From NCBI GenBank assembly GCA_965153355.1, contig OZ231126.1:42346001-42410000 (forward strand): a stretch of 64,000 nucleotides of DNA. The letters run 5' to 3'. The notes beneath the pieces were generated by a model that saw only the letters and a program-made list of their open reading frames with translations, was not told the DNA's origin and ran no database searches. The position numbers and the translations under genes are program-made. This DNA comes from Flaccisagitta enflata (Eukaryota). Positions 8,184-59,700 of this stretch are shown here, in pieces. The first letter of the stretch is position 1. Every line of letters begins with the position of its first letter.

Positions 8184-24177
<15,994 letters not shown>

Positions 24178-24322
24178 CCCGTCTGCAAAGGAAGAAATAC
24201 ACCTAAGTTACGTAGAATGATGTACCTATTTATGTGCTTAGAATTGTTATCTATGTGGGTCACTCTTAGAACAGCAATTGCGTTCAAGCACACGTTCAAA
24301 TTCATTCACTCCCACATCTGCA

Positions 24323-30727: not shown

Positions 30728-31430
30728 ATGGTAAGAATGACATTACTCTGTTTTTAGTTGCGGACACGCAACTCTATAAGAGGCTTTCTCCGTCCGTTGG
30801 TCCGTCGGTCCGTCAGCACGAGTCGAAAAGTGGGAAAACGCGCATATCCGCCCCTGCCCACCCGTCCGCAACTGATGGCCGTGTATCCGGCCTTGTTTTT
30901 TTGCAGTTTTGCCAATTTCATATGTGTACAATACAAGAACAATCGAGAGGGAAATCTTTCCTTTATTAGTAATTCTCAAAATCAGAAAAAATAAGACCCA
31001 TTTTCGATGCAGATTCGACTGGGGTGTGTTGACTCAATTTTTGATTCCATTTTGTTAATCTAGGCAAAATTCCCTTTCATTTGATAGGTCGCACTGAATA
31101 CTTTTGCAAAGAATTTGAATTTTCATTTTTTTGATTCACTGTTACAAAAAAGTTACAGTGGCTCAAAATATGAAAACTTTATTTCTGTATAAAACCATAT
31201 AGTGTGACCTATCAAATGAGAGGAAATTTTGCATAGAATAACAGTTTGGAATCAAAAAATGAGTCAGTACAACTCACAAGAATCTGCATTACCAACGCCT
31301 CTCCTGTAGGTGAAAAATCGTTTTTTTTTCAAAAAGCGCTCCAGAAAGATTTCTCTCTCGATTGTTCTTGTATAGTACACATATGAAATTGGCAAAACTG
31401 AAAAAAAAAACTATGTCGTTCTCACCCTAG
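30728..31430. mobile_element. Palindromic MITE with a HINE-like insertion (30752-30898) in its left arm
   Basis: CAGTTTTGCCAATTTCATATGTGTAC...AATCGAGAG versus CTCTCGATTGTTCTTG...CATATGAAATTGGCAAAACTG. Confidence 0.7.
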
Positions 31431-36723: not shown

Positions 36724-37343
36724 TACGCCACGGGGGAGGCTTTCATAGGTCAAGAAAAATTCTCGGTCATAATGGAGAGTAGTTTTGGCCTTAGGAAGGT
36801 TTACTTTATCAATTCATACTGAAATGAAAATTTTTTTACTTCAAAATTTTTTTAAAATGCCGTAAAATACCGTAAAATTGGCATTTTTTACAGTTTTTTA
36901 GGTTCAAAACCGCCGCTATGGTCAAAAAATAGGCAAACAATGATTATTTGGTACTAAAACATATTCATACATAAATACATGCCAACTTGTCATCAAAAAA
37001 TGCCATTTTTACGGCTTTTTACGGTATTTTACGGCACAAAATGATACTAAATGATGACGGGTTGGCCTGTATTTATGCATAAATGTGTCTTAGTGCCAGA
37101 TAATCATTGTTTGCCTATTTTTTACCTTAGAGGTGGTTTCAGACAAAAAAAAACTGTTAAAAATGCCAATTTTACGGCTTTTTACGGCATTTTACGGCAT
37201 TTTACAGCATTTTAAAAACATTTTGAAGTAAAAAAAATTTTATTTTGGTATAAAGTGATAAAGTAAACCTTCCTGACGCCCAAACTACTCTCTATTATGA
37301 CCGAGAATTTTTCTTGACCTATGAAAGCCTCCCCCGTGGCGTG
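36724..37343. mobile_element. Palindromic MITE, CACGCCACGGGG-terminus family
   Basis: TACGCCACGGGGGAGGCTTTCATAGGTCAAGAAAAATTCTCGGTCATAAT versus ATTATGACCGAGAATTTTTCTTGACCTATGAAAGCCTCCCCCGTGGCGTG. Confidence 0.85.
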
Positions 37344-39513: not shown

Positions 39514-41157
39514 ATGGGACTACGCGTGGTTAACGGCGCCGATCTCTCATGGGACTACTCCGACGCGCCTGATCCGGCAGCGACGGCTACCGGCGCTTCT
39601 CGACCGGCAGCAACGACTTCCGGCGCTTTTCCTCCGACAGCTTTGGCGCTCGGCGTTCCACTTCCGCCCCCGTCGACGTCTCGCGTCCCATTTCCGGCTG
39701 CGGCGTCGACGGACGTTCATCCTCCATCCACGGCTGCAGACGGCGCTCTTCCTCCTGATCCGGCGTCGTCGGCGGCACGTGCATCGGCATCTCCATCGTC
39801 CAACGGTTCTGTGGAAATTGACTCGTTTAGCGATACATCTACTCTCTGTCCTACGCCAGACCCAAGCGCAGCAGTCTCTATTGACATTCCGGATTCACCC
39901 CCATCCAACGCCATCTCAGTGTCGTACCCACCCCCACTCTCGTCCTCATCGCGCCCACCTGATTACTTTGAATTAACTCAAACCCAGGATATTCTAAATC
40001 ATAAAAACGTCCATGATTGGCGGTTAAAAAATCTCGCTTCTTGTGTGACCATCCCAGCAACCATCCATGAAGGTTTCACCTTACCTTATGGCGCGCCTGT
40101 TACTCGCAACGACTTTGCCACGCATACGACGACGCCGGTAAGGGCAACGGCCTCCGTCACCCTGCCGAAGACACTTCCTCCTCCCGTGTCTCTGCGTCCA
40201 TCGCATCTTTCCTCTGCATCCTCACTCCGCATCCCTCCCACTTCGCATCTTCCGCATCCTCACTCCTCCTCTACCGCTCCTCATCATGCTCCTTACTCTT
40301 CGCCTACTGCTCCTCATCATGCTCCTCTTCCTGCTCCAGCGGCGCCGATTTTGCCGCCGGTTGCTCTGGCGGCGTCGATTTTGCCGCCGGTTGACCCAGC
40401 GGCGCCGACCACGACGCACGTCTCTGTTGGCCCCCATTCGCTCTCCATGGCGCCACCGCTGCACATGCAGCTTCGCGACGATTCTCCACCACCGGAACCG
40501 CGTAAGCCACGCCCTCCAGGCCTAATGGAAGTAGAGGGTGTTGAGCTTATCCATTCGACCGACGGACATGTTTGCGGCGGACATCCTGAAACTCATTTGA
40601 TTTCAAAATTGCTCAAATTTGTCAAACCCGAGTTTAAGTCCCAGGAGAAGATTGATGTCTATTTGAAAAAAAAGAAGGAATTAATGAATTGCTTCAAGGC
40701 TACTTTTCCATCTGAAACCCTTTACACTTTGGTCAACATTTTCACATTGCAATGTGATTCTGAGCTTTGTTCTTACATTGAGGAATTAACTGCAAAGAAA
40801 AGTTATTTTACTTCTTTTGAAATGTTCCTACGTGAGTTTGAGGAGCAAGTTTACCCAAATTCACGTCAAGCCGCCTACACGCGCTTTATCAACAGATCAA
40901 CCCCTTCTGATGCCAAAATCGCGGTGGCATGGAAGCAATTCAAAGAAGACGCCAGGGTGGTTACTTTGGACCCACTTGAGCACAACATGCTTTTCATTAG
41001 GGGTATTCGCCATCGTGAGAAGAAAAAGGCGCTTCTGCAAAAATGGTTATCCACTAAAGACATGGACGAGGTTTTGGAAGAAGCGGTCTCCTTTGAATCT
41101 ACTTATGAAATGATGACTTGTTGGGATCAAGATGAAAAGGAAGGGAAAAGTAACTAA
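39514..41157 (+). pseudogene. Gypsy gag-like ORF (Pro/Ser-rich N-terminus, capsid-like C-terminal half), continuing in broken Q- and RGG-rich frames to ~41870
   Basis: FEMFLREFEEQVYP...AAYTRF...LFIRGIR...MDEVLEEAVSFE resembles retrotransposon Gag CA; position upstream of pol; ~35-bp tandem duplication at 39494-39558. Confidence 0.65.
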
Positions 41158-42039
41158 AAATCAAGCCTGCCAGCAACAATGCTAACATCAATGCCATTAC
41201 TGCGTCGGGGAATGGTAAAGCGGGCAAACAGCAACAACAGCAAGGTCAACAGCAGCAACAGCAACAACATCAGCAGCAAAATCAGCAGCAGCAGGACCAG
41301 TTGACTAAATCTCAATGAAAGAAATAATCAAGAGTAAGGAGCAACAAAGCTAAAGCAGTTGCAGAAGCAGATGGTGAGCAAATGGGCAGCAGCAGCAGCA
41401 GCAGCAAACACAGCAGCCGCCTCAGCAGCAGCAGGGAGGTGGTAGGGGTGGAGGAAGAGGAGGAAGAGCGATTAGGGGTAGTGGAGGTGGAGGTGGAAGA
41501 GGAGGTGGAAATGCTGGCGGTGGTGGTGGTGGTAAGGATGGTGGTGTGACTGTAGCAGCAAATGAGGTGCAGGAAGCGGCTATCAAGCAAAACCAATCGA
41601 ACCAACCTGTTTCATCGGGATGGACGGGGCCACTCTCAGCCCAAAATTGGAGTTTTCCAACCACTTTATCTGCCATGTCCACCAACACGCACAACAACTT
41701 GATTCCACCGAACGAAGCTTTGAATAAATGACGACGTTCAAATCTCCACGCCCAATCTGCGAAATTTAAAGTGGAGACAATTTCTAATTCAGAGGAGGTG
41801 GGTGAGAGAGGTGGCAGAGGAGGAGGTGGGGAGAGAAGGTGGGGGTGGACAATTCTAACTCTAATCATCATACTCGTCATCTAATTGCCTGACTTTAAAA
41901 TATTTTATCTTCAACAAAATTGTGAAAATACTTTGTCACGGCCTGTTTGCCTAACTCTAAACTTTACTCGTCATCTAATTGCCTGGCTTTGAACATGTCA
42001 GCGCGGTCAGTCCTAAGATGGTGGCTGGTTTACCTTTAA

Positions 42040-45000
42040 TTGGTGGTGAAGGGCTTCGATGGAAATCGCACCACAGCTATCACCCACAAAGTTGAACTCG
42101 AGTTGAACTTTCACCCCGGCGGGTTGAAGGATTACTTCTATGTTTGCGACGTTCCCCACGCTATTATTGGAAACGACATTCTCCAAAATGATGAGCACCA
42201 TCTGTCGCTGGAAACAGGAAAAAAGTTCTTTCATATTGGCAGTGACATTATTTTCACCAAATCTTCGCCATTTTTGTCCATTTCTGAGTACAAACGTCGA
42301 CGTCTCTCATCGGTTTCTAGCTACAGGAGAGCATATAAACACCACTGTCATGGTCGAAATTGGGTTAGACTACTCCAGGATTACCGTCTTGAGCCAAATT
42401 CAATCACTATGGTGGAGGGGTATGTGGATAATTACTTCGCTGACTCGCAAAGTTTCTTAAGTCTTTATGATGGCTCATATCACATTTACATACCATCTCT
42501 TTCCTTCCCGGATGGTAGGGAAAAGGCTTCAAATGGTCACGATACCCCACTATTGATCCCTGTTGCAAATAACCTGAGGTCAAAACTATGTCAACGTTGA
42601 CTATCTTAGGTGAAATGGTTCGTCACTCAACTGATTCACAGCAATATGATGCCGAGTGTTATGATATGAGGGAGTTGTTAGAGGAAATAGAAAGGAGAGA
42701 GATGGTGTCTGGTGAAGATATGACTTGTAAATATGGTATCACATCCCCATATGATGTATGCAATATTGACACTGATGAATTTTCAAATGTAAATAACCCT
42801 ACCACTCCTACCAACCAACCCAACCAACCTACCACTCCTACCAACCATCCCAACCAACCTACTACCCTACCGACCAACCAGAATTTCACTCCCGTGTTTT
42901 CGTCCGACATTAATCATCCTCAATACACCCCTCCCTCCTCACCTGTGCCATTTTCATCACTTGTTGGGAAGAATAAAGTGAGTGATGATGTTCTCGATCA
43001 AGCTGCCGGGATGGTATAGACTCTTCTTTGACTTGGTACGATGACAAAAATGGACCTGATGTTGAAATGGAGATTCTTTAAGACATCGATATTGAAGCTG
43101 AAAGGAAAAAAGAAGATGATTGTCCTTACTGGAAAGATAAAGATTCTTTTTTTTCTGAATTCAACTTCAAAGATTTGGCCCAAGAGCATTTGGACCCACT
43201 CAAAGAACTTCTATTTTCATTCCGTCACATTTTTGACTCTTCTGACCCTGCCCAATTCAGGCAGGGCATAAACATGAAGCCAATTGAGATAAAGCTTAAA
43301 CCCGGCATGACTCCTAAAAAACACAAACTTAGGCGTCCCTCTGATGAGAAAATTCGACACCTCAAAATTCACCTTAAAACGCTTCTCGATCAAGGCGTCA
43401 TCGCCGAATTGGACAGTAGCGCCGACGTCTACGCAAGTCCTTTGCACCTTGTTGTCGAGCAACGGTTCGTCAGTTCGCGCAACGCCGTGGTGGAAAAAAG
43501 TAGGGTAACTGCAGACCAGCGCCAATTAAATGCTTGTCTGGCCGACAGCTCATTTCCGCTTCTTCCAAGTAAACTGCAATGAATACCGTGAAAAGGTAGG
43601 AAAATGGGGGTTACACCACCTTAGCAATTCCTGATTGCCTGGGCCCTTCTTCCATCAGCTCGTCCTGAAGAAAGTTCTAAGTTGTTAGGCATTCACGCAA
43701 TTAATAAGATCTATTGTTACCTTCGCTTATCCCAAGGCCTAAAACTCAGCCCACCTATTGTCCAAAATTTCATCAGCAAGGCCATGCGCTGTCATGAGCG
43801 CGTCTTCCCGTTCATTGATGACTGTTCAGTTGCTTCAAAGAATGTTCAGCAGCATCTCTATGAAGATCTTCCCAAATTTTTCGCCCTCTGTTCCTATTAT
43901 CGGATACTTCTTAAACCTAGTAAGGCTGATATGGTCAGGAAATCGACTAGAGTCTTAGGGTTTCAAATTGGTGAATCTCAATTGTCATTATCCAAGGAAA
44001 AAGAGGTGAAAATTTCAGACCTTAAATTCCCAGTCACAAAAGATGAGTGTATCGCTCGCCTAGCCTTTCTGCAGTACTTTAATGGCGTGGCGCCAAAGCT
44101 CAGTGAACTTTTAGCGCCATTACGCCGTTTGACTAAATTAAAGGTAAGGTACACGCCCACTGACTTACACAGGGAGGCTTTTGACAAGGCCATAACTCAC
44201 CTGCAAGATAAGAAAGTGAATGTCATTCGTCTTCCGTCTTCTGACCCTTCAGACCAGTTCGTGCTGTGGACAGATGCATCGTCAAACTCAATCTCGTGTT
44301 TATTGACGCAATATATGCTTCCTCCATCGTCTGCACCTGATAATGATGGAAAAAGAAGATTGTATGTGGTAGGGTGTTTTTCTTCAGTCATCAAGGACAG
44401 CTGGCTTAATTTTCCAATATGGTTGCTCGAGTTGATCAGTCTCTACGAAGCGACTCGCAAATTCCGCCATCTGCTCAGTGCAAAAGCTTTTTGGGTGGTC
44501 GTTGATAGCTCTACAGTGGCTAACTGGGCCAGTCTTGAGGGTATCCCTAAAGACTTGGCCCGTAAGATCCTACACATACAGAAATTTCAGGCTAATATCG
44601 TCTTTGTTGAAAGTAGATTGCAAGCTGCAGATCCATTCTCACGCTTAGAATCACTCCCAGCACCATCTGGCACTTACCCAAAATTTTTGAAGGAAAGGAT
44701 CTACAACGCCCATGGACAAAAGGTGCCTTGGCAATCACTCTTTTCCCAACGAAAACACGATGAAATGATCGCCTTTTTTCATCGCCATCGGAGACAGCCG
44801 TTATCATACGCCGTCGACGGACCGTTGGAAGAGGAGGAGGAGGAGGAGGAGGAGGATGATTATGCTTCTCGACCCGACGGTGAATACACCATTGTCGTCG
44901 ACGATCTTCCGGCGACGCCGCCGGAAGTGACGCCCATCGCCGGCGCCATCCCGGCGATCCACACGTCGATTTGCGCCATATCTCTCGACGACGACGATTT

Positions 45001-46605
45001 AAATGCTGGAAGAGTGGAGGAGGACGATGATTCCCCGCCGGATAGTGACGTCATGGACAGTATCACACTGCCACGTTTTTCCGGAAGTCGTTTGGAGTTC
45101 GTGCGTCGCCTTCAAGCCGGCGACGATATTCTCGATCGTTGCCGAGACTTTTTGATGGGGACGACGCCGCTTCCCAACAAGGCCGAGGCTTTGTTATTAT
45201 CGGCGCCGCTGCAGGACTTCTTACGCCATCGTTCGCTTTTCCGACTGACAGACCAAAACATTTTAATCAGATTTTGGTTAAATCCGTTGGGTATCGTTGA
45301 CCCACTTATCATGGTGGGATCTAATGAATTTTTGAAGCTTGTCGGCGAAACTCATTCATTCAACTCAACATCATCATCCGGTCACATTGGTCAAAGAAAG
45401 ACCATGGATTCTCTCAAAAGACAGTACTATTCTTTCAACATGAGGCGGGTGATCAATTCTTACGTCCGTTCATGTCCCCAATGTGTGTTAAACAACCATC
45501 CCACCTGTAGGAAGGAAGACGATGGCAACAAAATCGCGACTGAGCCTTTATCGACCGTTGAAGTGGACGTGTGTGGCCCGTGGAACAATTTCAAGACCAC
45601 TTCCGGCCGAACGCCGTCATACTTTGTCGCAATTGACGCGGCGTCTCGATTTGCATTCACGTCAACGATATATTCGACCTCTGACGCCGAAATTCTTCGT
45701 TGTTTTCTCGATATGCGTCGCCATTTCTCCGGACTTCCTTCTAAAATACAATGCGATAACGGGTTGTTGAAAGAAAACTCACGCGCAAAACAATTTCTGA
45801 TTTCACACCACGTTTCAATCACACATGGACACGCGTACGTCAGCAGATCACAGTCTCGTGCTGAAAAAACTATCGGCACTATTTCTTGTCTCATCGTTAA
45901 ATACAGTACCGAGTGTCCAAAAATCGCTTTTCCCCGTCTGTTAGAGGAATCCACGCTCACCTATAACGCATCTCCATGTGACGCTCTCCCATGAATCTTT
46001 CCCCATTGATTTCTTCTATGTGCGTCCTCCAACTTTTCTTCGTTCTGCATCTCGACGAGGCCGCGACGGGCGCCGCCAAATCGCCGATCGACTGCGCTGC
46101 TACAATGCAGCCGGCGCCGTCTCTCCAAAACGACGTGGCTGCGCTCATCCGGCGACAGAAAAAACGATCTCCGACGAACTACACGCGCCGCCTCAAAAGC
46201 GGTGATTGCGTCTTAAAGAAACGCTCTGTGTGGCCTGTCGGAACGCCGAAGAAATACGGCCACAGAGTGGTTGTGGACGGATTTGTGGTGGAAGAACGAG
46301 TCGCCACAAATGCCTTTAAGGTTCGAAGTGTCGTGACGGGTGAACATCAAATTCTCCCAGGTGACGTGTTGATCAAAACTAAACTCACTGAAGATGAGTT
46401 ACGTCGCCTCGCGGACTCAATGAATGTAAGTTTGGAACTGAGTGAGCCAGAGATTGAGCCAGCTTTAACGCGTTCTCGTGCCAGGGCATTGAATAATGAT
46501 GCCTCGGTGAATTCCGTCGAAAAACTTTTCATCCATCATAGTGGAAAAAACAATTATAGTCTCGATTCACTTGTTGATTTTGGAATCTCTGATTTGTGGG
46601 TTTAG
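42040..46605 (+). pseudogene. pol: Gypsy pol (protease remnant, RT, RNase H, integrase, GPY/F-like tail) split by several frameshifts
   Basis: PR flap VKGFDG and IIGNDIL. RT ASPLHLV, RVTADQRQLN, LSQGLKLSP, FIDD. RNase H LWTDAS, LELIS, VVDS. IN H..GHIG...CPQC, VDVCGP, QCDNG, SQSRAE. Tail LKSGDCVL...GFVVEERV. Confidence 0.9.
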
Positions 46606-46755
46606 TCTATTTTTCCATATGATGATCAATTTTGAGTTTATAGGAAAGATGATTTTTTATTTTTTTTGGTTTTTTGTATTTTTTTAAGAAGTACAAAGTA
46701 GAAAGAAAATGAATAACCATGATCATTTTACCATAAACTCGGATTACCCCTATAT

Positions 46756-47130
46756 TTATATCCACACACTTCTTGCGGGCGCATCATATCCTCCATTTCT
46801 GCATTCTCGCATCTCTATAATTTCATCATCTGTGAAATTGCGCGGGATACCATTGCGGGGTGGAAGTTGTGGTGGTGCACCGTGACCTCTGTTCCTTATC
46901 CTTTCTATCATCGTTGAGAGTAAATCTTGCCCATGGCTCAGCAGGCGACGAGCCAGGACGGGATTTTTTATCCCAATGATGATACAAATGACCAACAGGA
47001 CAGCGGCCGCGACACTACCCACAACCTCTTCCAACCACCAAGGGTACCCAGGGTTATCATGGGCCTGCTCCATTGGGCTATTCTCGGTCGCTGAGGGGGA
47101 ATAGTTCCAATAGGTCTCATTATAACCCAT
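46756..47130 (-). CDS. 124-aa single-pass membrane protein with FAST-fusogen-like architecture
   Basis: CAAAATGG start, MGxxxT, ~35-aa ectodomain, TM VVGSVAAAVLLVICIIIGI, amphipathic/basic segment, PQLPPR, YDAP. Upstream acceptor TTTTCTTTTAG| at 47210. Minus-strand AATAAA at 46656-46661. Confidence 0.7.
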   Translation of the reverse strand: MGYNETYWNYSPSATENSPMEQAHDNPGYPWWLEEVVGSVAAAVLLVICIIIGIKNPVLARRLLSHGQDLLSTMIERIRNRGHGAPPQLPPRNGIPRNFTDDEIIEMRECRNGGYDAPARSVWI

Positions 47131-47770
47131 TTTGCACGTAATTTCACAGTCAAGTGTGCAGATATAAATTCCTTAATAGACGGGACAGCGACCACCCACC
47201 TTTAAATTTCTAAAAGAAAAGATTTTTAAACACTCAAACCCCCGAGAGAAACGAAACAAAAGGTGGAAACTAAAATTTTAAAAATGATAAAAACTTGCTT
47301 TTGCTGTAAAGAAATGATTAATCGAGTTATGTCATGTACAGAATTCTTTTATTTGCGATAATTCATTATACGCGGGTACAGTCTCACAAAAACTCTATCT
47401 GACTGTATCTACAATTTAATTGCCTTCTGTCTAAGTGTCTCGGTCTCTCACAAACAATTTTCATGACTGGAACACTTTATTGTACATATTCGTTATTAAC
47501 GAGTCTCTTATTCGCGGCGATTCGTTATATCAGTTTCTCGCTGTATTCTAGTTTTTCTCTTTTTGACGTTCTTAAAGTTGCCCTCACTCACTATGTGTCT
47601 GTTATGAAGCGCGCGCCGATCCTTTTTCTCTCCACTCCTCAATTGCCCAATTTCGTTGTCAGCGCGCCTTTTGTTTCCATCCGACGCATCCATCTCCACT
47701 TTCGCCTTTTTGCGCAGAATGCTGATTTTGCGTCCATTTTGCGCATAAGTCGCGGGCCTTTTGTTTCCGT

Positions 47771-50700
47771 CTAAACTCGGTTCCTCCCATCGTCTCGATC
47801 GTCGTCGTCGTTTCTGTCGCGTCGAGGGCCTGGGAATAAAATGTAGTATACGTTTTTTTTTGAGCGGTGGTCGCTGGATATTTGCGTTAGCTCTCTCTCT
47901 CTCTCTCTCTCCTCCTCTCTCTCTCCCTCTCTCTCTCCTCTCTCTCCTCTCTCTCTTTCTCTCTCTCCTCTCTCTCTCCCTCTCTCTCTCCTCTCTCTCT
48001 CCTCTCTCTCTCCTCTCTCTCTCCTCTCTCTCTCCCTCTCTCTCCCCTCTCTCTCTCCTCCCTCTCTTCCTCTCTCTCTCCCCCTCTCTCTCCCTCTCTT
48101 TCTCCCCTCTCTCCCTCGTTTTCATCTCAATTTTTGGTTGAATTTTTCAACGCTTTTTCTAAATATTATCCATTTCAGTTCCGTTTTCATTTTCTCACGA
48201 ACTGAAAAATATTAACCACTGTTTCCCCGCCGGAAATATTTACTCATGTTCTATTTTGTCAATGACAAAAATATTATTCTGCACACTTTTTTTCCAAAAA
48301 TATTACTCAAAAATATTAACCGTATTCACAAATATTATACTATAGTTACATCCGGATTCCCTTTCTGCGCAATTTTACCCCTCTTTCTCCACCCCTCTTC
48401 CCCCCACTCTGCTTTGCGGAAGTCAAAAATCAAGAAAGGGTGCTGTTAGAAATGTATGTCCGTCCGTTTTTTAAGTATGTGTGCTTTGTCTCTTTTGCGT
48501 GCTTTTGACTTTTCCTCTTTCTCGATTATTCAATGCCCGCGTCTTTTGTTTCTCGCCATTTTTTATATTGAACGCTAAATGGGTAACCATATGGTTGCGC
48601 CTTGTATTTTGTGCCATTTGTTTTTATTACGTAGGCGAATATACGTAACTCGTCTTTCGTATCATCCAATTTTTGGATTGATTGATTTTATTTATTTACG
48701 GCATTGCTTCTTAAAGTGATTGATTGATTTTTCGTGATCGTTTGAATGCGCCCTTGGAATTCACTAATTTCAATAATCTCTCATCTTTTTATTGCAGATA
48801 AACTAATGAACGGACAATTAACGTTAGTTTGACTTCGACAGACTGTGGGTTGAAACCAACGAAAGTGGGCCTAAAAGTAAGTTTTATAGACGCGTTTTTG
48901 CTTTTATTAACGTTGTTTTTATCTTGTTTTCCGGTCTGTTATTTTTATCTTTTGCCCTTTTGCATTTTTATCGCCGGATTTTAGTATGGTTTTTATCGCT
49001 TGCCCGATCAGCTTGCTATAGGGATGATATGGATGAATTTAATGGGATGGGCCGGGGCAGGGGCAGGTATTATCAGGTGGCATGGGCTCTGAAGAAGATG
49101 AACATGTTGTCATGTGCTGTTTCTGTCCTTTATTGTGTCCTATCTCGATTTCATGTTATCTTTTGCGTTTGCTGATCACAATTAACGCCCACTTTCCCTT
49201 TCATTTTTCCCCCTCTCTTCAGTTGTTGAAATTTTTATGGAATAAACGAGACGATCGCCTTCCTATTTTCCAATCGGACAACTTTCTTTCACCACAAGTC
49301 GTCAGTCAGATAGACGCTCATAGACAGTGCCAGTTGAAACTCGTGGGCGTAATTATATTTCAACAATTTAAAACACGACTCGACTCTTTCCATCTTCGAC
49401 CTCCGAAAACGAAATTGGACATAGCCGCGCGAGCGACGACACCGCTCGACTGCCTAACGTCATCTCGTGTATCTCACTTCGGTTTGAATCAGTGTCCGAG
49501 GTCGAACCGTTTACGCGCAATGAGGAATGACATCACTGCGGAAATGGAAGGATGCCGGCGCCTTTTCGACGCCGTTGCTTGCGCCGAAGGGACGAATGAC
49601 TTCGACACGCCGCCTGTGAATCAGATGGCGCTCGACACGGCCTTCGGGATATGGTTACGACTTTATATCATGCAAGGCAAATGGCGCTCGACTTCGTGCC
49701 CGGCGACCCTCTTCGATTCGTGCGTCTACTTTGCGTCGAATCCGGCGCGAATGGGACTCCATGCGTTTCTTTGATCGTGAGAACTATCCAGAGGGTTTTC
49801 CTTCCAACGCCGACATCGTGAACGCAGTGCATAACGACATCGGGAATCGCAAAAGACCCGTCAATGAATTCTCATGGAACAGTCTCCCAACTGATACTCA
49901 CGCCGCCCGTGACAATGTTACCGGCGCTCCGACTCCAAGGATGCGAACGTCTTCGCCAAACCCCGACGGATCCGAGTATCTACCACTTCCGGTCCCGCGA
50001 CATGGTGCGCAATCTCCAACTGGCGGCCAATTTTTAAATCTGCCGCCGATCCAAAGAGGAGATGCCGTCAATCAATGGGTATCAGATTTGGTCTCGGAAA
50101 TTGAACCTGCGCGTGCGTCTCCGATGGAGCAAGCTGACGACATGCTTGCGGATCTCGACGACGCCGACGCTCTCGCAAGAGGCCGCGGGATCATCAACGG
50201 ATTGACGCCGCAGGAGAGGGCGAGGCGACGCTTCGCCAACAGGAGTGCTGAGAGAGACAGATGGGGTAGGCAGTTGGAGGAGGAAATGCGACAAGGCCGT
50301 CGGCTGATTGACGATATGCAGCAGCAACAACGGGAGGAGGAGCAGCGACAGCAACAGGAGCAACAGCAGCAGCATCAATTGCAGATGCAGCAGCAGCAAC
50401 TCCAACAGCAACGTCAACTCCACCGACCACAGGAGCAGCAGCAAACGACGGCTCAGCGGCAGCAGCAAGAGCTGTTGCAGCAGCAGCAGTTGCAGCAACT
50501 CCAACAATTTTGTCAACAAGATCAACAACAACATCAGATCCTGCAGCCGGCGCCACAACCTGTGGCTCAACAACAGCAACAATACGATCAACAGCAGCAA
50601 CAGCAGCAACAGCAACAACAACAAGAGCTGCGACAACATCAAACGGCAATGCAGCCGCACGAACAACAACAACAGCGGCAAAACGATGCAGGAGAACATA

Positions 50701-53700
50701 GCAACAGCAACAACAGCAGCAACAGCAACCTTCCGCCGCGATCCCAGCGGTGGTAGTGGATCCTCCAGCTTCAAATAACCATCCTGTCGAAAGCATGAAC
50801 GTCAGTGAGGAGACAGAAGAAGAGAGACAGCAACGCCTTGCAGATCAACGTCTGCGCATGATGGCTGAAGGTGAAGGTGGTGGTGCAGCAACAGCTCCAA
50901 AGGCGCCGATCGCGGTGCCATTGGGATTCCAACAGCGAAGCTCATCACAAGAAGACAAAGAGTTATACGACAGAATGTGTAACTTTCGCCAGCAGCAGCA
51001 ACGAGATGAAGATAGAAGAGCAGGAGTATTCAACAATGCGGCAGAAATGCAACGAAAGCACTGGAATAGCCTGAACGACGGCGGCATTGGTGGAGCTTTA
51101 GAGCAGCGGGATGTGAAGCTTAGACAACTGTCTGAGCTGGACCAGCAGCAGCCGCAGCATCCGCCAAAAGACCGTCGATCTATCTTCAGAAATTTCAATC
51201 CGGGATTGTTCAATTCGAACATACAGCAACGTCATGCGCAGTCAGTGGAAACGTCCGTCAAGCAGCCGATGCAGCAGCAGCAACAGTTGGAGCAGCAGCA
51301 GCAGCAAGGACAACGTCAGCGTCAACTGCAGCAGCAGAACGAACAGCAACAGCGTCCTGACCAGCAACAGCAGCTTCAACATCAACAGTGGCAGCAGCAA
51401 CGGCTTCAACAACAGCAACAGCATCAGGATCAGCATCATCAAACCCCAGCAGCAACGATTCTCCCTACCGCACCGGAAGTGATCTTCGAAGCAGATTGGT
51501 TCTGCTAGAAGGGAGACTGGTCTTCCCCATCAAGAGGAAAAGGTCTTCAACACAGCCGGAAGCGGAGGTGATGCAACGGAGGCGATGCGCAGGAGGCAGA
51601 AGCAGGAGGCCGCTGACGCGAAGTTGGCACAGCAGCTGCAAGATAAAGAGAGAAGAAAAGTCGCTCCCAAGAAGACAATGAATGGATTGCAGCCGAAGGC
51701 GCCGAAAGTAGCGCAAGCGCCTCTAGCAACGCCTCAAGCGGAAGTCATCCAGCAGAATCAACGTTTGCAGCAGGAAGTGGATAGTTTGAAGATGCAGATT
51801 CAGCAGAGAGACTTTGACCTTGCCGCAGCGAGAGCAGAAGAAAAACAACGTAAAGAAGAACAACAGCGACAGTACGTCCGCCAAGATTTTGATGCTCCCC
51901 GATTCCATCAAGATGATCGTCAACAACAAATGAATCAGCAAAAGGAAGTTGGGTGGAGTGTAAAAACCACCAAAAAGAGATCTCCGGTAAAAGTCGGGGG
52001 TCAATACGCCTTTCGTCCAACAACCCCCAGCGTATCATCAAGTGGAGCATCATCAAGTAGCCCGTCAACCGGAAGTCCACGTTCAGATGCCCAACAATCC
52101 GGCTCTGGACAGGTTTTTGGAAAGAGCGACGTACAATGATCTCATGCGAGCAAGGGAGGTCGGCCTCAAAGCGTTGGAGAGAGCAAGACCTGAGAAGCCT
52201 CTGCAGGAGCTTTCATCCACCGACTTCATGATGTGGAAGAGGAAGTTCAAAGATGCTGAGAAGCATGAAGGCTTGACGCAAATGGACATCTTATTGGAAT
52301 TGCCTAAGTGGTTTGCTGGTCCGGCAAAAGAGATCATTGAAACTGCGACGATTGATGCAACTGAAGCGACAGCAAGAGGAGAGATTGACGACGCCTTCGC
52401 AAAAATGGACGTCGTCTTTATGGCAAGGCGCTGCAACATTGCGGCGCTGTTCAACGAAATCGTCGCGGAGGCGAAGATCCAGTCGGCCGACCATGCAAGG
52501 CATTTCAATTTGTCTGCAAGGTTGCAAAAGGCAAAGAAGATTGCGAGGACCTGTGGAGAAGTGCAACAATGCTATCGTGACGAGCTGCTGCAGGAGATCC
52601 TCAACAAGAGGGTCCCTCATCTTGCAGATAAATTCTGGGAAAAGCAACATGAAGCAGCCCAAAATGGACAATTATTTTCATTCGACAACTTGGTCAATAT
52701 GATCGAGACATGGGCGGTGATTCAGCGCAACAAAGGCGCAAGCTGCAAAACAGCATCAGTGGCAGCAGTCGCAACTAAAGAGAAAGAAGCGCCATCATCA
52801 TATGAAGATGCTTTGACCAATGGCAAGCAAAAGACGCAGTCGACGGACCGCTGCAACGTCTGCAGTGGAATGCATCAAACAGAAGACTGTCATCAGCTAT
52901 TAGAGTTGGAAGTGGACGCGAGAGTTCAAAAGATCATGTCTCGTCGTCTCTGCTTCCACTGCCTCGCGCCAGGACACAACGCCAAAGGATGCGCGAACAG
53001 ACCGACTTGCCAAACCTGCAAGAAGCGGCACGCAACGATTCTCCACGGGCGCACCTACAAGAAAGAAGAAAAGGAAGAGAAGAAAGGAGAAAATAAGCAG
53101 GGAAATAAAGTACCGCTGGCTCCCTTCAAAAAGTCAGAGGATGCGGCTGCAGCAGCACCAACAGCTCCGTCGACGACGGAGGCAGCCGATCCAACGGAAA
53201 TCATCTCTCCTAACGCCACGGCATGACTGGCGGCGACGGCAACGTCGCGGTCCGTCTCTTCATTCGACGACGTTGTCCGTCCGATCGTTCCAGTGACTAT
53301 CATAAACAATTCTTCGGGTGCGCAGAGGACGATATACGCTATGATCGACTCAGGCGCTGATCGCGACGTGATCAGTACCAGTGTCATTCGCAGTCTTCTG
53401 ATTCCAACAAAAACAGTGCAAATGACGGTGATTACTGTGGGAAGTCATGTTGTTGAGGATCGTTTCATCGCATCATTCACCATGCAATCGGTCGACGAGG
53501 AATACGTCGTCGACGTCAACGACGCGTTGGTGGGTGATTTGTTAACGAGTGAACGCGACATTCCTCCTTTTCTCCGCGACCTATCTGACCAACCTCACAT
53601 CAAAGGCGTAAAATTTCCAGAAGCTGAAGGCGGTGTGATGATGATCATCGGAGCGGCGCATGCGGATGCCGCCGTCGCTCAAGAAATCCGCCGAGGGCCT

Positions 53701-56700
53701 TCAGGATCTTTGACTTGCTTCAGATGTCTATTCGGTTGGACTGTATGTGGAAAAACGGGGAAGAGAGGACGAGATATTGCATCGATCAACGCTATCGCGA
53801 CGGATGACCGCGTTCTCAACGACAGCATCGATCGCATCCTCGACAATCGCGTCCTCAACAGCAACATTGACCGCATCTTCTACCATGACTTTGCATCGTC
53901 AATCGTCTCGCAAGAGGAGATGGGTGATTCCCTGGAAAACATCAGAGCGTGCAAAATGTTAGAGGAAAAGACTTATTTTTGCCCAATTGTGGGAAAATAT
54001 TTCGCTCCCGTCACATGGAAATTTCATCACGACAAAATCATGGAAATTCTGAGAAGAGTGAAATCACGACCGACTGCGATGAAGCGGCTCGGTAACCAAC
54101 GTTTTCGCTTCAAGCGTGATCCAGCCTTCAAAGAAAGAGTCTTCCGTGAAATCGAGAAGTTTTACGAGACGGGAGTGGCGGTTGAGATTGACAGCGTCGA
54201 CGACGACGACGGCATTGAGAAGCCGCGCTGGTACTTGCCGCTTCATATTGTTGAATTGCGCGGCAAAACGCGCGTATGTCACGATGCGCGTGCGGCGACC
54301 GACGGGATCTCACTCAATGATTTGCTCGTCGGAGGTCCAAACTTGATGAACAGCTTGATGGACATCCTCATGCGTTTTCGTCAGTGGAAGATCGCCTTTA
54401 TGTGTGATATAAAGGCGTTCTTCCACCAGATCCGCGTCCATCCTGACGACGCTGATCTGTTCAGATTCTTTTGGTTCAAAGACCGTACTCTACGAGAAGC
54501 CATTTTGAATCTGTTCTTATCACATGTCTTCGGCAGCCAATCCAGCTCATTCGTCACGTCTTTCACCGTCAGAAAGCATGCTGAAGTAATCCGGCCCAAA
54601 TATCCCTACAACGTCTACGATCTTATTCGCTTCGGCTTCTACGTCGACGACGGAAGTGGGGGTGGGGATTCGGTCGACGAAGCACTGCAGTTGAAGGTGG
54701 ATGCAGTGGCGGCGATGGCTGAAGGCGGGATGGATCTTGTGAAGTGGAAAAGTAATGCGCGGCAGTTGATGGATGGAGATCCGAACGTGCCAATTCCCAT
54801 CTCAGATAAGCAAGATGATGCGCCGACGAAGGTGTTGGGCGTCTCATGGCTTCCGGCGGAAGACGTCTTCATCTTCATCTGCGACGAGGAATTCAAAACT
54901 CTTAGAGCAAAAACACCTCGTCAATTGGTCTCCATGCAAGCTAAACTTTATGATCCATTGGGATTTTGGAGCCCAAGCGCATACATCGGCAGACGACATC
55001 TTCAACTCTGTCGTCCACAGGAAGTGGGATGGGATTCGCCCTTGGAAGAGAGCGTCGAGGAATCCTTCTTCCGCTACACTTCGTCTTGGCCTCTTCTACA
55101 ACAATACCGAATTGAACGCTGGTGGAATGGCGGCGTCGACAATAGTGACATTGCGGAAATAACAATTGAGATCTTTTGCGATGCGGCTCCAAAAGGCGGA
55201 TATGGAGCAGTTGCATATCGACGTCAAATCAATCGAGATGGAGATGTTCACATTTCATTCATCGCCTCCAAATCCCACGTCATTCCACTTAATCCCAAAC
55301 GTGCTTCTCATCACAACAGCGTTCCACGCGTCGAGATTGTATCCGCAGAAAAAGCAGTGCAGCTCAAACGCTTCGTCGGAAGGACCATCGAATTGGACAA
55401 TCTTGTCGTCAGATTTTGGTCTGATTCTGAATCTGCACTGAAGATGATTTACAATCCGGCGAAACCAAGGCCTGTATTTTTCGCCAATCGTCTCTCCAAG
55501 ATCCATAGCGGGTCTGATCCTCAGCAGTGGCGCTGGGTTGATTCGTCAAATAACCCGGCGGACCACTGTAGCAGAGGCATCCAGGCCCATGAAGCCGAAA
55601 AATGGCGTCAATTCCATCACGGTCCTGCATTTTTGCGTCTTCCCGAAGATCAATGGCCAAAGACGAACATCGCGACGTGCCCTATTTCTGCACAAGTCGC
55701 CGCATTGTATGTGGCTGAAAGTGAAAAGAAACAAGTGGCTGACGCGATACTTCTTGCAGCAGCTTCTCGGGGAAAATGGATGCATAAGTTGCGGATCATC
55801 GGCATGGTTCTTATCGCAGTCAAAAGGTGGAGAGCGTATCCAAGGGCGAAGACACGAGCAGCAAAGGATCTCCTTCCTAAACCGGAAGTGACGCAAGACG
55901 TTTTGGAGGAGGCGCGCAAACAGCTCGTCAAGTCAATGCAGCGGCATCATTATTCAGACGTCTTCGAACAATTGGAGTTGGGAAAAGTCTTTAAACCAGA
56001 AAGCCGTCATGACTTCATCATAAAAATAAAGAGATGCGGAATTTGAATCCTTTCGACGACGACGGTATCGTCGCGTCGGTAGTCGATTAAACGCCGACAT
56101 CGCACATGACGCTAAATTTCCCTTCATCCTGCCGCCAAAAGACGAGAATGTGAAATCATTGATTCGCCATTATCATCACAATGATTTTCACGCGGGTGCA
56201 AAGCATACATTGTGCCAATTACGCCAATTTGTGTGGATTACAAAAGGTCTTCAGGCTGTCAAGAGCGTCGTCAACACGTGCTTCAGATGCCAGAAGAACT
56301 TTAAAAAGAACGCAAATCAGCAAATGGCCAATCTTCCATCAAATCGCGTCAATCCTGCGCCTGTCTTTGCAGAGACTGGATTGGATGTCATGGGGCATTT
56401 CCTAGTTAAGATGAACGGGCGTGCTGATCATAAGGTGTGGATCGCAGTGTTCACCTGTTTCGTGTCACGCGCCGTCCATGTGGAATTGCTCTTCAACATG
56501 TCAGCCGATGCGATGGTAAATGCAATCATCCGCTTTGCAGCAAGGCGCCCAGGAATCCGCCGTTTCACTTCAGATTGCGGGACGAATCTAGTTGGCGCCA
56601 ATAATATCCTCAAGAAGGAAATGGAAGCTTGGAACCGCTCGTCAACTCCCGAATTGCAGCGGCGCGGCCTTCGGTGGGATTTCATCACGCCGAGAACACC

Positions 56701-59700
56701 CCACTATGGAGGGGTGTGGGAGAGAATCGTCGCTCTCTTTAAGCGCCATCTTGCTTCCATCTCGACTGGCGCCATCCTCCACGTCGACGCCTTCAACACT
56801 GCCGTTGTCGAAGTTGAAGGAATTCTCAATCGCCGTCCTCTGACAGCGCTCAGCGATGATCCAAATGACTCTGAGGCCCTCACACCGAATCATATCCTCA
56901 ATCCATCGGCATCCGGTCACGCCCCTCTAGATCTGGTGCAACAAGGCGTCAACTCTGACGCCGACTCTGCGAAGATTCAATGGAGGCGTGCGCAATCGCG
57001 TGTGGATGCATTTTGGAAATCGTGGAGGGTCGAATATTTGTCGCTTCTTCACGCGCGAAGCAAATGGTCGAGATCCGAGAAAGACTTTGCGGTGGATGAC
57101 ATGGTCATCGTCATGGACGAAACGCTGCCTCGTCACAATTGGAGTTTAGGACGTGTCATGGGCGTCGAGGGATCGTCAGCCCATGTCCGGAGGGCTCACA
57201 TCCGGCGCCAAGATGGAAAGATCGTGACGAAAGACCGCACGAAGCTCGTGCGGCTGGAATTGGACTCATAAAAAACGCTAAGTTTTGAGAGAGAGAGAAA
57301 AAGGCGCATGGGCCTGTCCATTAGTAACTATAGATATGAGTGATTGAAACTCTGACTTGTTATATTTACAAAGAGTTGTTATTCATATTTGGTTCTGATT
57401 ATCCATGCTTTCATCTTTCCTCTTGTCAATTATGTTGTCCATTTCCACTTACACATCAAAACACTGATTCATTCGCTCTGTCTATATGTACATATTATTG
57501 TGCCAAAATCCGTTCTTACCATTATCAGTTCTCAATACGAACATTTCAAAGCTTCCGCTGACGACGTCATTCCATCTACGAAGTCAGTTCGCATCTTGAA
57601 GTCGCTCGTCGGAGTCAAGATGTCCCGTCAGCAGCGTCTCGAGGCAGAGGCCGACGTGTCGACGTCGTACGGATCCTTGGATCTCCATCGACTCTTCAAC
57701 GACGGCTCGACTCGAGAAGGATCTGCATCCACGACGTCGTTCGGGGCGGAGGAGGAGGCTGTCGCGTTGGCAGCCTTCAATGGCGACCTTCGTTCCGTCG
57801 TAGACGCAAAAATGGCGAATAAAAAGCGTCAACAAGATGATGCGTTGGTAAATCGTCAACAGCCATCCAACGCCGTTGATCCCGCGTCGCTTCCTCCATT
57901 GGTGGTCATCAGAGATGGAGGTTCGAGGCGGATCTCGATCAATCGGCCGCCGACGGACTTATCCACCACTTCCGCGGCGGCGTCATCATCATCGGATTTG
58001 CCCCCATCGCCTCGCCAATTTTGCCTTGATTTCGGTCGCCCAGCGTCTCGTGATCAAGCGTCTGCAGCTGCACGTCAACGCAGCGGGGGCGAAGAGAGAG
58101 AGATCGGTCAATGATGGAGCAAGAGTGGAGGAGGAGGGGATGGAGACAGAGGAGGAGGTGTTAGTGAATGGGGAGGCGGTGGAGAAAGACATTGACCCGG
58201 AAGTGGACACTGCGACGCCGGAAGAGAAACACCAACGGATGCAGGCGCGTTGGTGGTATCGTACCATCAGTCCGGACGTCGGAGTATCTCTCCTCTTCAA
58301 AGAGTTTGAAAAACTTTCAGTGTGCTGCAACAAACAAACTCTCATGCGCTCATCGGCTAATCAAACAGAGCTTGGCTCGGAGACTCTGGAGCGCAAAATC
58401 CAAAGTAATAAGAGAAGGAGGGAGCATGATAAGGAGGTTCGTCGCATGGTCCAGGCGACGAAGAGGAAGAATGCGGCTCCGAAGCCTCCTGATGCAACTG
58501 CAAAGTCATCTGCAGCAACTTCCGTCGACGCTTCCGCAACTCCACCAGCGGTATTTGTGCTCGACGCAGCCGCAGCTACATCAGCGGCAATTCACTCTAC
58601 AGCATCAGGAAGTCGTCAATCGCGCCCTGGATTGGTTCATCCCCCAAATCAGCAGCAACAGGGTCCTCGTGACGTCACTCCCTCACAACAGTCGAAGAGA
58701 TCACGTCGGGGAAAGACTCCACAAATGCGCAACGTGCCGAGTCAACAAAAAGGGCCAGATTCCAAAAGCAAAGGCCCCCTTCAAGCGCATCTAGGCGCGC
58801 CCCCTGCAGCAGTGCGCCCAAAGGCCAAGGAGAAGCTTCAAGTGGTTAGTCGACGGCAGCGTTGGCAGCAACCCAGAAGCTGAATCAGGCGCCTGGGGCA
58901 GCGGCAGCAAAGGGGAAGAAGACCAAGAGAGCTGGGAAGAAGCATAAAGCAGCAACCAAGGGAGGTTCTACTTGCGGTGCTTCGGCGTCCGCTGTTAAAC
59001 CTCAAGTCTCTGGTCAGCAGACGGGAGCGTCTTCCTTTCACTCGCAGCCATCAAAAGCAGCGGTAGGAAGCGAACTAGTTGGCGGTGCTTCAGCATCTGT
59101 TAAAGTTGGTGTAGCGCCTCGTCAGCAAACCGAGTCTGCCCAAGGTCTGCAGCAAGTGCAGAACCCGCCTCCCCCGTCGGATCCAGCCTTTGATCCTGCG
59201 CATGGACACCACATCGCCGAGTCATTGCTACGAGAAGCCTCTTCACTGACCTCAAACGCTCCATTGGGTGTGGTGAAGAATTTAGCATCAAGGCTTCCGA
59301 AAGACTTCTTCGCGTCGCTCAATCCGCGTCAACGAGTTGAAGCGGCTCGTCAAGTCTTAGACGAGAGGATTCGTCGCAACATCCAAAAGGAGAGAGACGA
59401 TGCTCGTCAAGCAGCAATGGCTGCGGACAATGAGGTGGTCAAAGGCAATAAACGAGTCGTGGAACTGGAGAAGCAGCTTGAAAAGGAGAAGCAGGCCTGT
59501 GCGATGAAGGCTAAGAAGAAAGAGGAAGCTGTGGAACGCGCAAAGGCGGCTATGGCCGTCGACTTTAAAACTGCGTCCGCTGTGCGTCCTAAATTTCGAC
59601 TGACGCCGAATTGCGATGCAGCATCTCCACCTCCAGCGTCTTCTCCTGCAGAAAAAGTCGGTCAGCAGATCCTGTCGCAAAAAGACGCTCCCAAGCCTGG

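Follow-up and report, generated by a model that had tools for sequence, protein, structure and literature searches.

In the 64,000-nucleotide stretch of Flaccisagitta enflata DNA analyzed here (the window, within which all coordinates are counted), a 124-codon minus-strand ORF downstream of a Ty3/Gypsy-type pol is, as judged from the pattern of sequence conservation, a genuine, conserved protein-coding gene. We propose, with a probability of about one half, that the ORF is functional and encodes a small single-pass membrane glycoprotein of type III (N-out), being carried as an antisense accessory gene after the pol of a highly repeated Ty3/Gypsy family in a marine planktonic eukaryote. The features on which the argument draws are:

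39514..43582, plus strand: upstream part, probably of the same element as pol to judge from order and strand, with a gag-like ORF of 547 aa (39514-41157) and broken pol pieces (42040-42600, 43082-43582)
43625..46605, plus strand: 3' two-thirds of a Ty3/Gypsy-type pol with RT, RNase H, and integrase, divided between two frames near 45.99 kb
46651..48432, plus strand: weak candidate 3' LTR, with TGATTTTT after a purine-rich tract (46643-46653) and the end AAAAATCA at 48425-48432
46657..46662, minus strand: AATAAA, 94-99 nt past the stop codon of the small ORF, within an A-rich tract (46686-46655 of the minus strand)
46756..47130, minus strand: the 124-aa ORF, ATG to TAA
residues 1-35 of the ORF product: ectodomain with the sequons N4-E-T and N9-Y-S
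residues 36-54: membrane segment
residues 57-82: juxtamembrane helix
residues 85-92: proline-rich segment
residues 96-107: PRNFTDDEIIEM
C-terminal end: SVWI
47131..47222, minus strand: leader; the start context is CAAAATGG, and 47222-47210 holds a pyrimidine tract plus AG that resembles a splice acceptor
47356..47512, strand not given: upstream segment of highest conservation, lying 230-380 nt ahead of the ATG
47891..48117, strand not given: (CT)n array of ~227 nt that separates the small gene from the BEL insertion (Tandem Repeats Finder)
48444..61714, plus strand: separate BEL/Pao retrotransposon with LTRs at 48444-49357 and 60801-61714 and the 5-bp target duplication GGTGC

The ORF lies where an earlier note on this DNA had placed it, with the translation quoted there; it is antisense to pol and convergent with it, the pol stop codon (TAG, 46603-46605) and its own being 150 nt apart. 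The start context reads from the sequence as that note had given it, and the AATAAA is present as a candidate poly(A) signal, near which RNA-library contigs extend to 46662 and 46653. The upstream splice acceptor that the note had seen exists as a pyrimidine tract plus AG, but none of the four runs reports a splice joint; an RNA-library contig is collinear across this acceptor-like site (47130-47412), as is the leader in relatives with N-terminal extensions (P0031, P0006). Further upstream, a 157-nt contig of run X3 is identical to the window at 47356..47512 and has the highest single-contig depth listed (8086), making this segment a candidate promoter or regulatory part of the small-gene unit. 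Rfam and tRNA scans of the 64-kb window returned 0 matches. The length of the ORF is by itself within chance, because long ORFs are frequent nearby (40 ORFs of at least 60 aa overlap 40-52 kb); it is the homologues that lift it above chance.

These homologues form a family of 20 clusters with 240 member sequences from marine metagenome assemblies, 15 of the matches being full-coverage ones of 123-131 aa at 69-88% identity. The start motif and the end are both kept in 55 of the 64 relatives retrieved, whereas only 10-30% of copies stay intact when unconstrained substitution to 71-84% identity is simulated. The 282 parsimony changes across the 124 sites are unevenly spread (variance/mean 3.96), with 50 never-changing sites against 12.8 expected, and residues 85-108 average 0.88 changes per site, where the ectodomain, membrane segment, and helix reach 2.5-2.9. 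The membrane segment is the most variable part (2.95 changes per site) and is hydrophobic or small in 1062 of 1064 alignment cells. A profile search run on 1.84 billion representatives yielded 13 matches at E<=0.001; nine of its ten new matches look like true relatives, namely P0071-P0078, eight aligned sequences sharing length and layout with the window copy at 26-49% identity, and a C-terminal fragment, P0081. P0079 and P0080 were set aside as chance matches, being repeat proteins that match the PRNxTDEE stretch only. Across 31 sequences M1, N4, R79, P91, P96, N98, T100, and D101 are invariant, the family layout being completed by an invariant PRNxTD motif, an aromatic-aliphatic C-terminus, and a polyproline motif (54 of 55 relatives). 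N98-x-T100, likewise invariant, has the form of a sequon although its predicted location is cytoplasmic, which counts against the proposed reading.

This pattern of conservation contradicts the reading of the ORF as a chance frame in non-coding retrotransposon DNA from which no protein is made, and we regard that reading as extremely improbable. Such lengths are common in the window, as noted, and at the nucleotide level contigs diverge no less over the ORF (16-18%) than over the flanks (8-15%); against this stand the invariant sites, the persistently hydrophobic membrane segment, and the distant relatives of like length and layout, as well as the indels, of which both listed within the ORF are 3 nt long while six of the seven in the non-coding flanks have lengths not divisible by 3. 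Of nine substitutions listed in the ORF four or five are synonymous. The claim of an intact, real gene is thus borne out by the homologues and the uneven site-by-site change. Strong site-specific constraint is also expected of an expressed cellular gene, and the distant relatives fall in small clusters (1-33 members), as orthologues in other species would. Both points favor a different reading, under which the ORF is a host gene or a member of a multi-copy host family, perhaps once captured, that sits beside a dead Gypsy fragment and has no role in the element. We consider it possible but somewhat unlikely, for reasons that turn on the neighboring DNA and are taken up below.

The small protein matches no named family in Pfam or PHROGs. 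None of the 15 clusters looked up has a member with a name or an annotated-genome accession, which fits repeat-masked DNA and speaks against a host gene. The PDB profile search gave nothing usable, its best match (a designed helical repeat, E 5e-4) being taken as helix composition, and Foldseek against BFVD, with a low-confidence query model (pLDDT 59), returned 80 matches with none at E<=0.001. Pattern matches in JGI metagenome contigs (109 for close-family patterns, 253 for family-wide peptide patterns) and in an IMG/VR scan by peptide pattern (55) yielded none that was confirmed. In the ESM Atlas only generic small bitopic proteins matched, the best being an arthropod hypothetical protein (0.92, 169 shared features, below the bar). 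Influenza M2 appears among the language-model look-alikes of P0078 at 0.83, which is below the 0.9 bar and a lead only. It would agree with a viroporin-like class IA channel or membrane-remodeling protein, N-out and then an amphipathic helix as in M2, acting at particle assembly, a layout that the family shares. However, the highly variable membrane segment has no conserved polar or pore-lining residues, the conserved parts are short cytoplasmic motifs, and the Atlas matches are generic, so that we hold such a function to be very unlikely.

As the earlier note had described, the product has one hydrophobic segment (residues 36-54, mean Kyte-Doolittle 3.02) and a predicted N-out/C-in topology (charge -6 on the N side, +4 over residues 55-84), and AlphaFold2 places helices at 31-55, 57-82, and 102-111 (pLDDT 59). 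By prediction this is the size and topology of FAST proteins (about 100-200 aa, a single segment, N-out without a signal peptide), and the note had taken the protein for a fusogen of the FAST or sORF2 type, with which a Gypsy element lacking env could spread between cells by recruiting actin via SH3/SH2 adaptors. Its individual motifs fare differently. The NET and NYS sequons are present, as are PQLPPR and the C-terminal SVWI, and N4 of NET is invariant. The myristoylation-like MG-x3-T occurs as MGYNET here but is private to the window copy: residue 2 is Ser in 53 and Gly in two of 55 full-length relatives, the letter that codes for Ser predominates in each of the three runs covering the site, and distant relatives have F, Y, or S. 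Nor do the relatives conserve a juxtamembrane Cys for palmitoylation, and the ectodomain has no cysteine pair. YDAP is found here but is not kept beyond the close family and P0071, nor in relatives below 35% identity. The ectodomain is acidic, with hydrophobic moments (0.09-0.10 for residues 1-18 and 18-35) no better than those of shuffles, and its sole hydrophobic feature, a juxtamembrane YPWW, is absent in distant relatives. The basic amphipathic helix stands in part, its moment being moderate (0.46 at 57-74, reached by 3.75% of shuffles) but its basic cluster weak (K55, R61, and R62, net +2 over the first 15 residues past the membrane segment, with R62 nearly invariant). FAST juxtamembrane basic clusters are denser than this one. 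The combination of a membrane segment with a following basic patch and amphipathic tail motif is a moderate match to the sORF2 type.

With Gly2 private to one copy, the ectodomain patch absent, and the basic cluster weak, membership in the FAST group is unsupported, and we judge a fusogenic function of this kind to be unlikely. The layout does agree with it, in the 124-residue length, the N-out single pass, the basic helix after the membrane segment, and the polyproline motif, and the element has no env-like sense-strand ORF after pol. The FAST-like sORFs that the note had mentioned for env-less insect Gypsy elements prove to be real (Voichek et al., 2025; PMC11952523), some of these proteins being encoded downstream of pol. 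FAST motif sets vary, and sequence searches miss them (PMC11952523; PMC12945298). The lack of matches in Pfam, PDB, and BFVD nonetheless counts against the fusogen, as do the acidic ectodomain with its invariant sequon and the orientation of the sORF2-like candidates, all 105 of which are reported as forward (PMC11952523).

The neighboring gene is indeed a Gypsy-type pol, whose Pfam domains on the frame 43625-45994 follow the Ty3/Gypsy (Metaviridae) order of RT, RNase H, and integrase (RVT_1 24-115, RT_RNaseH 207-321, Integrase_H2C2 584-625, rve 641-738), and it is frameshifted as claimed, over at least four frames (42040-42600, 43082-43582, 43625-45994, 45982-46605). The 547-aa gag-like ORF has no Pfam match. 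Self-comparison of the window reveals no LTR pair around the Gypsy copy, which favors the host-gene reading, and neither 46606-48443 nor 61720-64000 shares a matching repeat with the sequence upstream of gag; a location inside the LTRs, as the earlier note had envisaged, is accordingly not demonstrable for this copy. The candidate 3' LTR would enclose the entire antisense unit, and it has no 5' partner in the window; its weak TG...CA pairing may be due to chance, because the 8-mer occurs 14 times on both strands against 8.7 expected. Two other sets of potential termini were rejected: a 140-nt inverted repeat (38953-39092 / 63629-63768), which bears (GGAC)n and has more partial copies in the window, and loose ends near 46652 and 46686, which are due to unrelated T-rich contigs. 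The region is bounded by the BEL/Pao element (LTRs 98.7% identical across 915 nt; domains Peptidase_A17, rve, and DUF5641), outside which the small ORF lies. Once this insertion is subtracted, the next same-strand upstream gene (61752-62510) resembles an ordinary spliced membrane-protein gene, again in keeping with a host gene. The closest pol relatives in the protein collection are 35-53% identical (six matches, proteins of 433-1381 aa), none of them on a contig equal in length to an ORF-bearing one, and for the 204-aa integrase C-terminus 621 candidates yielded no relative in the range of 112-357 aa; an intact neighboring pol is therefore far rarer in assemblies than the small gene, whose 240 members set against this dearth likewise point to the host.

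The abundance of the locus in sequencing runs, all of them picked by the ORF's own words, argues in the other direction and makes it likely that the small gene is tied to the Gypsy element. Run X3, from one organism and by our guess DNA, has 2330 contigs on 45600-47880, a highly repeated region with thousands of variant contigs, and its mean summed depth, a quantity distinct from copy number, is equal and very high over the pol end (~19,500), the ORF (19,500), and the upstream sequence (21,700). The ORF thus appears to be co-amplified with the 3' end of pol; this depth, and the mosaic look of the variants when compared with one another, speak against a host gene. Metagenome run X1 has an unbranched 1669-nt contig (depth 11.6) that extends from pol into the ORF as far as 46789 and there forks into two ORF variants whose depths (6.24 and 3.98) sum to approximately that of the contig, which also speaks against the host-gene reading. 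This bridging contig could stem from the window's own locus and species. We discarded the idea of a non-LTR retrocopy ending in an A-rich tail, as X3 depth does not climb toward the unit's 3' end and is equal over pol. Metatranscriptome contigs cover the ORF in X7, where pol is absent, and in X8, where it is lower, the contigs being of a kind from which strand is not readable.

Several known systems resemble the proposed antisense accessory gene in part. MMTV Sag, a type II membrane glycoprotein encoded in the sense orientation in the 3' LTR, is likewise encoded by a retroelement outside gag-pol-env and likewise a membrane glycoprotein. HTLV HBZ/APH-2 are retroviral antisense accessory proteins (PMC11963269), which like Sag have an expression route of their own; HBZ is a nuclear bZIP protein, and neither it nor Sag is related in sequence to the small protein. 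The position of the ORF, antisense to gag-pol and downstream of pol, is that of the plant aORF-3R genes (maize Grande gene23, rice RIRE2, Silene Retand), which are independently promoted, occupy the region that separates pol from the 3' LTR, often beside tandem arrays, and occur in many copies (PMC7264820, PMC11963269). The plant products are, however, longer and nuclear or DNA-binding (TRP28 domain) rather than membrane proteins such as the one predicted here (PMC7264820, PMC11963269), and in the present case the 3' LTR beyond the small gene is a weak candidate only and the host a marine planktonic eukaryote. With the sORF2 of the Drosophila MDG1 group (412, Mdg1, Stalker) the small protein has in common a small N-out single-pass form in an env-less Ty3/Gypsy element, a basic, helical stretch following the membrane segment, and the lack of a detectable sequence family (PMC11952523). 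Yet sORF2 is ~70 aa long, precedes gag (in some Lepidoptera it follows pol), is always read in sense from the transcript of the element itself, and usually starts with MGxxxS/T followed by an amphipathic ectodomain motif (PMC11952523), whereas the gene here is antisense, 124 codons long, mostly MS-starting, and furnished with a sequon but no amphipathic ectodomain; the two show no sequence similarity. Reovirus FAST proteins (p10, p13, p14, p15, p22) are similar in being ~100-200 aa long and bitopic N-out, with polyproline in some (PMC12945298), but belong to non-enveloped dsRNA viruses and carry a fatty acyl group or a hydrophobic patch in the ectodomain, together with a dense polybasic motif. 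The family here conserves neither acylation nor patch and has a thinner basic cluster, and its gene is chromosomal in a eukaryote, flanked by a Gypsy pol and a BEL/Pao element. Full-text literature searches, with coverage ending short of the supplementary candidate lists of the sORF2 paper, gave no account of the small-protein family or of the arrangement.

Given this organization, we propose that the antisense accessory gene would be transcribed from its own minus-strand promoter within about 47.13-47.9 kb, with the transcript ending at the AATAAA (46662-46657); with a promoter and end of its own on the minus strand, the unit's signals would therefore spare the element's sense RNA. Charge and conservation suggest that segment 36-54 would insert as a reverse signal-anchor, turning the acidic N-terminus and the Asn4 sequon toward the lumen or outside. 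The cytoplasmic tail, comprised of the juxtamembrane helix, PPxxPP, PRNxTD followed by an acidic helix, and the aromatic-aliphatic C-terminus, might dock host adaptor or trafficking proteins at the membrane, as its short motifs would permit. Particle traffic, exit, or cell-to-cell passage are conceivable uses of such a protein for the element. The most specific version of the last of these, in which the antisense family gene is an env-independent cell-to-cell transmission factor and a separately arisen analogue of sORF2 and FAST, with its own promoter and without acylation, we hold to be quite doubtful; if true, such a factor would be without precedent both in antisense and outside insects, and its gene would be visible across ocean metatranscriptomes.

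Should the link to the element hold, LTR retrotransposons would have antisense accessory genes outside the plants in which these have so far been documented, and the small membrane proteins that Gypsy elements encode as accessories would no longer be confined to insects, with a different gene layout here. The family, an unnamed one that is common in marine metagenome assemblies and present in metatranscriptome libraries, bears on whether env-less retroelements repeatedly acquire small membrane proteins, and cheap expression could assign a function to a widespread "dark" protein.

The small gene, tail-to-tail with a broken Ty3/Gypsy pol, and two further features of the window are located as follows:

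46756-47130, minus strand: small ORF of 124 codons, ATG to TAA, read from the sequence
48444-61714, plus strand: full BEL/Pao element with Peptidase_A17, RT, integrase, and DUF5641 in long open frames
61752-62510, minus strand: candidate three-exon gene; a signal-peptide-like start (MRYHPLLSFILPVLLLPG...) is followed by two exons that close with a membrane segment and an acidic/basic tail

Both the 124-aa antisense ORF and its translation, as quoted in an earlier note made from the sequence alone, were reproduced at 46756-47130. The adjoining pol displays the domain order RVT_1, RT_RNaseH, Integrase_H2C2, and rve (Pfam) in one plus-strand frame and stops with a TAG at 46603-46605; since the small ORF lies on the minus strand, the two genes are convergent with their stops 150 nt apart, just as the note had stated. 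It was likewise right that pol is frameshifted: the gene is split over at least four frames (42040-42600, 43082-43582, 43625-45994, and 45982-46605), and the window's frame break near 45.99 kb is absent from the Logan contigs of other sequencing runs. The signals ascribed to the ORF, namely its start context (CAAAATGG), an AATAAA 94-99 nt past the stop within an A-rich tract, and an upstream acceptor-like pyrimidine tract plus AG at 47222-47210, are all present as sequences, but use of the acceptor is not borne out: no splice joint at this AG was found in the Logan contigs of the four runs examined, and an RNA-library contig passes across it unspliced.

ORF length alone is weak evidence for a gene, because 40 ORFs of at least 60 aa overlap 40-52 kb. 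Judged by its sequence conservation, the small ORF is nevertheless a real gene. In a word-indexed search across 5.8 billion protein clusters, the 124-aa protein matched 20 clusters with 240 member sequences from ENA, JGI, and Logan assemblies, 15 of the 20 with full-protein coverage at 69-88% identity and lengths of 123-131 aa. The start motif MSYNE[ST]YW and the terminal SVW[IM] are both retained in 55 of 64 fetched relatives. In substitution-only simulations from the window's own codons, 10-30% of copies were still intact once amino-acid identity stood at 71-84%, and comparison of these with the relatives is skewed towards intact copies because the protein collection holds called ORFs only. 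Free of that bias is the pattern of change on a parsimony tree of 56 distinct full-length sequences, where the 282 changes over 124 sites have a variance/mean of 3.96 and 50 of the 124 sites are unchanging against 12.8 expected under Poisson. Residues 85-108 show 0.88 changes per site versus 2.5-2.9 in the ectodomain, membrane segment, and helix; the membrane segment is the most changed part, yet all but 2 of its 1064 cells are hydrophobic or small. In the small sample listed from the runs' contigs, the two indels within the ORF are both of 3 nt, whereas six of seven in the non-coding flanks have lengths not divisible by three, and four or five of nine ORF substitutions are synonymous.

A profile search against 1.84 billion representatives recovered 13 matches at E<=0.001. 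The distant relatives (P0071-P0078 and the fragment P0081), 26-49% identical where aligned, have a common layout, with Met-x-x-Asn-x-Ser/Thr at the extreme N-terminus, one membrane segment, and an RKNLELAxRLL-like helix, followed by PPxxPP, PRNxTD[DE]ExIEM, and an aromatic-aliphatic C-terminus; M1, N4, R79, P91, P96, N98, T100, and D101 are invariant in 31 aligned sequences. Two profile-search matches (P0079 and P0080) look like chance matches. Among the 15 clusters of close and distant relatives that were looked up, no member has a name or an accession. Separately, in the 178-aa metagenomic P0020 this family's membrane segment and helix follow in frame on the N-terminus of a DUF389 (PF04087) membrane protein, a fusion that reflects either chimeric assembly or exon shuffling.

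Residues 36-54 form the hydrophobic segment, with a charge of -6 on its N side and +4 over residues 55-84, and the predicted topology is therefore N-out/C-in without a signal peptide, in agreement with the single-pass layout proposed earlier. An AlphaFold2 model from 31 sequences, of low confidence (mean pLDDT 59.3), places helices at 31-55, 57-82, and 102-111, the remainder being disordered. The basic amphipathic helix claimed after the membrane segment stands in part: it is moderately amphipathic (hydrophobic moment 0.46 over residues 57-74, reached by 3.75% of shuffles), but the juxtamembrane basic cluster is thin for a FAST protein, a small fusogen of reoviruses. Searches of Pfam, PHROGs, PDB profiles, BFVD (Foldseek), and the ESM Atlas returned no named family, only generic small bitopic proteins. 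The invariant N98-x-T100 is also a glycosylation sequon, though on the predicted cytoplasmic side.

The earlier note had read the product as a FAST-like fusogen acting in env-independent cell-to-cell transmission, a reading that now appears improbable. Its statement on FAST-like small ORFs in env-less insect Gypsy elements was correct: the relevant passages of Voichek et al. (2025; PMC11952523) describe sORF2, a FAST-like membrane protein of ~70 aa in MDG1-group elements; the 105 candidates found in insects are all forward-oriented, and some lie 3' of pol. Hallmarks described there and in part of PMC12945298 are a single N-out pass, acylation (MGxxxS/T or palmitoyl-cysteines), an amphipathic or hydrophobic ectodomain patch, a juxtamembrane polybasic motif, and a tail amphipathic motif. 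The 124-aa protein is like these proteins in predicted topology and tail helix, and the proline motif of SH3-ligand type holds up, PxxPxR being kept in 54 of 55 relatives. The myristoylation-like MG-x3-T does not: Gly2 is private to the window copy, since 53 of 55 relatives have Ser at residue 2, distant ones have F, Y, or S, and the letter coding for Ser predominates in each of the three runs covering the site. The family has no conserved cysteine, relatives below 35% identity lack YDAP, and the ectodomain, unlike that of FAST proteins, is acidic with a glycosylation sequon in place of the hydrophobic patch, no amphipathicity being found there by hydrophobic moment. Given that topology, tail helix, and PxxPxR fit and the other hallmarks fit poorly or not at all, the mode of action would be at most loosely FAST-like; by the features compared, the protein is not a FAST member.

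Logan contigs of four runs were compared with 45600-47880. X3, which bears the label of one organism and is presumably DNA, contributes 2330 contigs to this region, most of them 90-95% alike; their mean summed depth is ~19,500 both at the pol end and across the ORF, and ~21,700 in the 750 nt upstream. Summed contig depth is not copy number, and the runs were selected through the ORF's own words. A 1669-nt contig (depth 11.6) of the marine metagenome X1 extends without a branch from pol as far as 46789, a position within the ORF, and forks past that point into two ORF variants of depths 6.24 and 3.98, summing to about its own depth. Taken jointly, the two runs suggest a single repeated unit comprising the pol end, spacer, ORF, and upstream region; co-amplification of the small gene with the Gypsy element is probable. 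The main rival, a host or captured gene merely adjoining a dead element, which we consider less likely, faces that repeated unit on one side and has an imbalance between pol and ORF on the other. The pol at 43625-46605 has no relative above 53% identity in the 5.8 billion clusters, versus 240 members at 69-88% for its 124-aa neighbor; its best relatives (433-1381 aa) are six matches at 35-53% identity only, no relative of 112-357 aa was found for the integrase C-terminus in the protein collection, and no contig of equal size is common to pol relatives and ORF-bearing contigs. This imbalance fits a gene carried antisense behind pol by a Gypsy-type element only if most assembly contigs are transcripts or solo-LTR-like copies. 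One reconciliation of the ORF-rich, pol-poor assemblies is that many contigs are small-gene transcripts; contigs span the ORF in the metatranscriptomes X7 and X8, with pol absent in X7 and lower in X8, the strand not being readable from contigs.

Within the window, the Gypsy copy has no LTR pair, no sequence after pol resembling any before gag; a weak hint is a purine tract followed by TGATTTTT at 46651, pairing with AAAAATCA at 48425-48432, an 8-mer occurring 14 times in the window. The small gene is outside the BEL/Pao element, which begins 1.3 kb upstream of it and has the appearance of a young insertion (915-nt LTRs, 98.7% identical; 5-bp target duplication GGTGC). With this element removed, the next minus-strand feature is the candidate gene at 61752-62510, whose stop is 32 nt from the BEL insertion site and whose product has no Pfam match. 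A 140-nt inverted pair (38953-39092 and 63629-63768; 90% identical, with (GGAC)n-like runs) lies on either side of the combined Gypsy and BEL region; as partial copies occur elsewhere, it probably represents a further small repeat family. Long near-palindromic repeats at 3239-3708, 728-1357, 11125-11675, 14415-14542 (a perfect 128-nt palindrome), 30896-31408, and 36725-37342 suggest dispersed MITE- or foldback-type elements. Low-complexity satellite-like DNA occupies 24289-25130 (a tandem array with copies 81-89% alike) and 22041-23276 (1.2 kb in which all six frames are open and both GC skew and AT skew are strong). The 642-codon minus-strand frame at 8184-10112, in a GC-rich island (57% GC), is probably a host transcription-factor exon (GATA zinc finger at 26.3 versus a Pfam cut-off of 26.8 bits).

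Full-text searches of the literature turned up no description of the family or arrangement; the supplements of the sORF2 paper, outside that scope, might list related candidates. In gene arrangement, antisense ORFs of plant Gypsy elements are a closer structural precedent than FAST or sORF2 proteins: the passages concerned describe, in elements such as Grande, RIRE2, and Retand, an extra antisense ORF located between pol and the 3' LTR, with its own promoter and often beside tandem arrays (PMC7264820, PMC11963269), and the small gene likewise has a (CT)n array upstream. We propose, at a probability of about 0.5, that the small gene belongs to a Gypsy-type retrotransposon as an antisense accessory gene, encoding a predicted small N-out membrane glycoprotein whose conserved cytoplasmic motifs would dock host factors.
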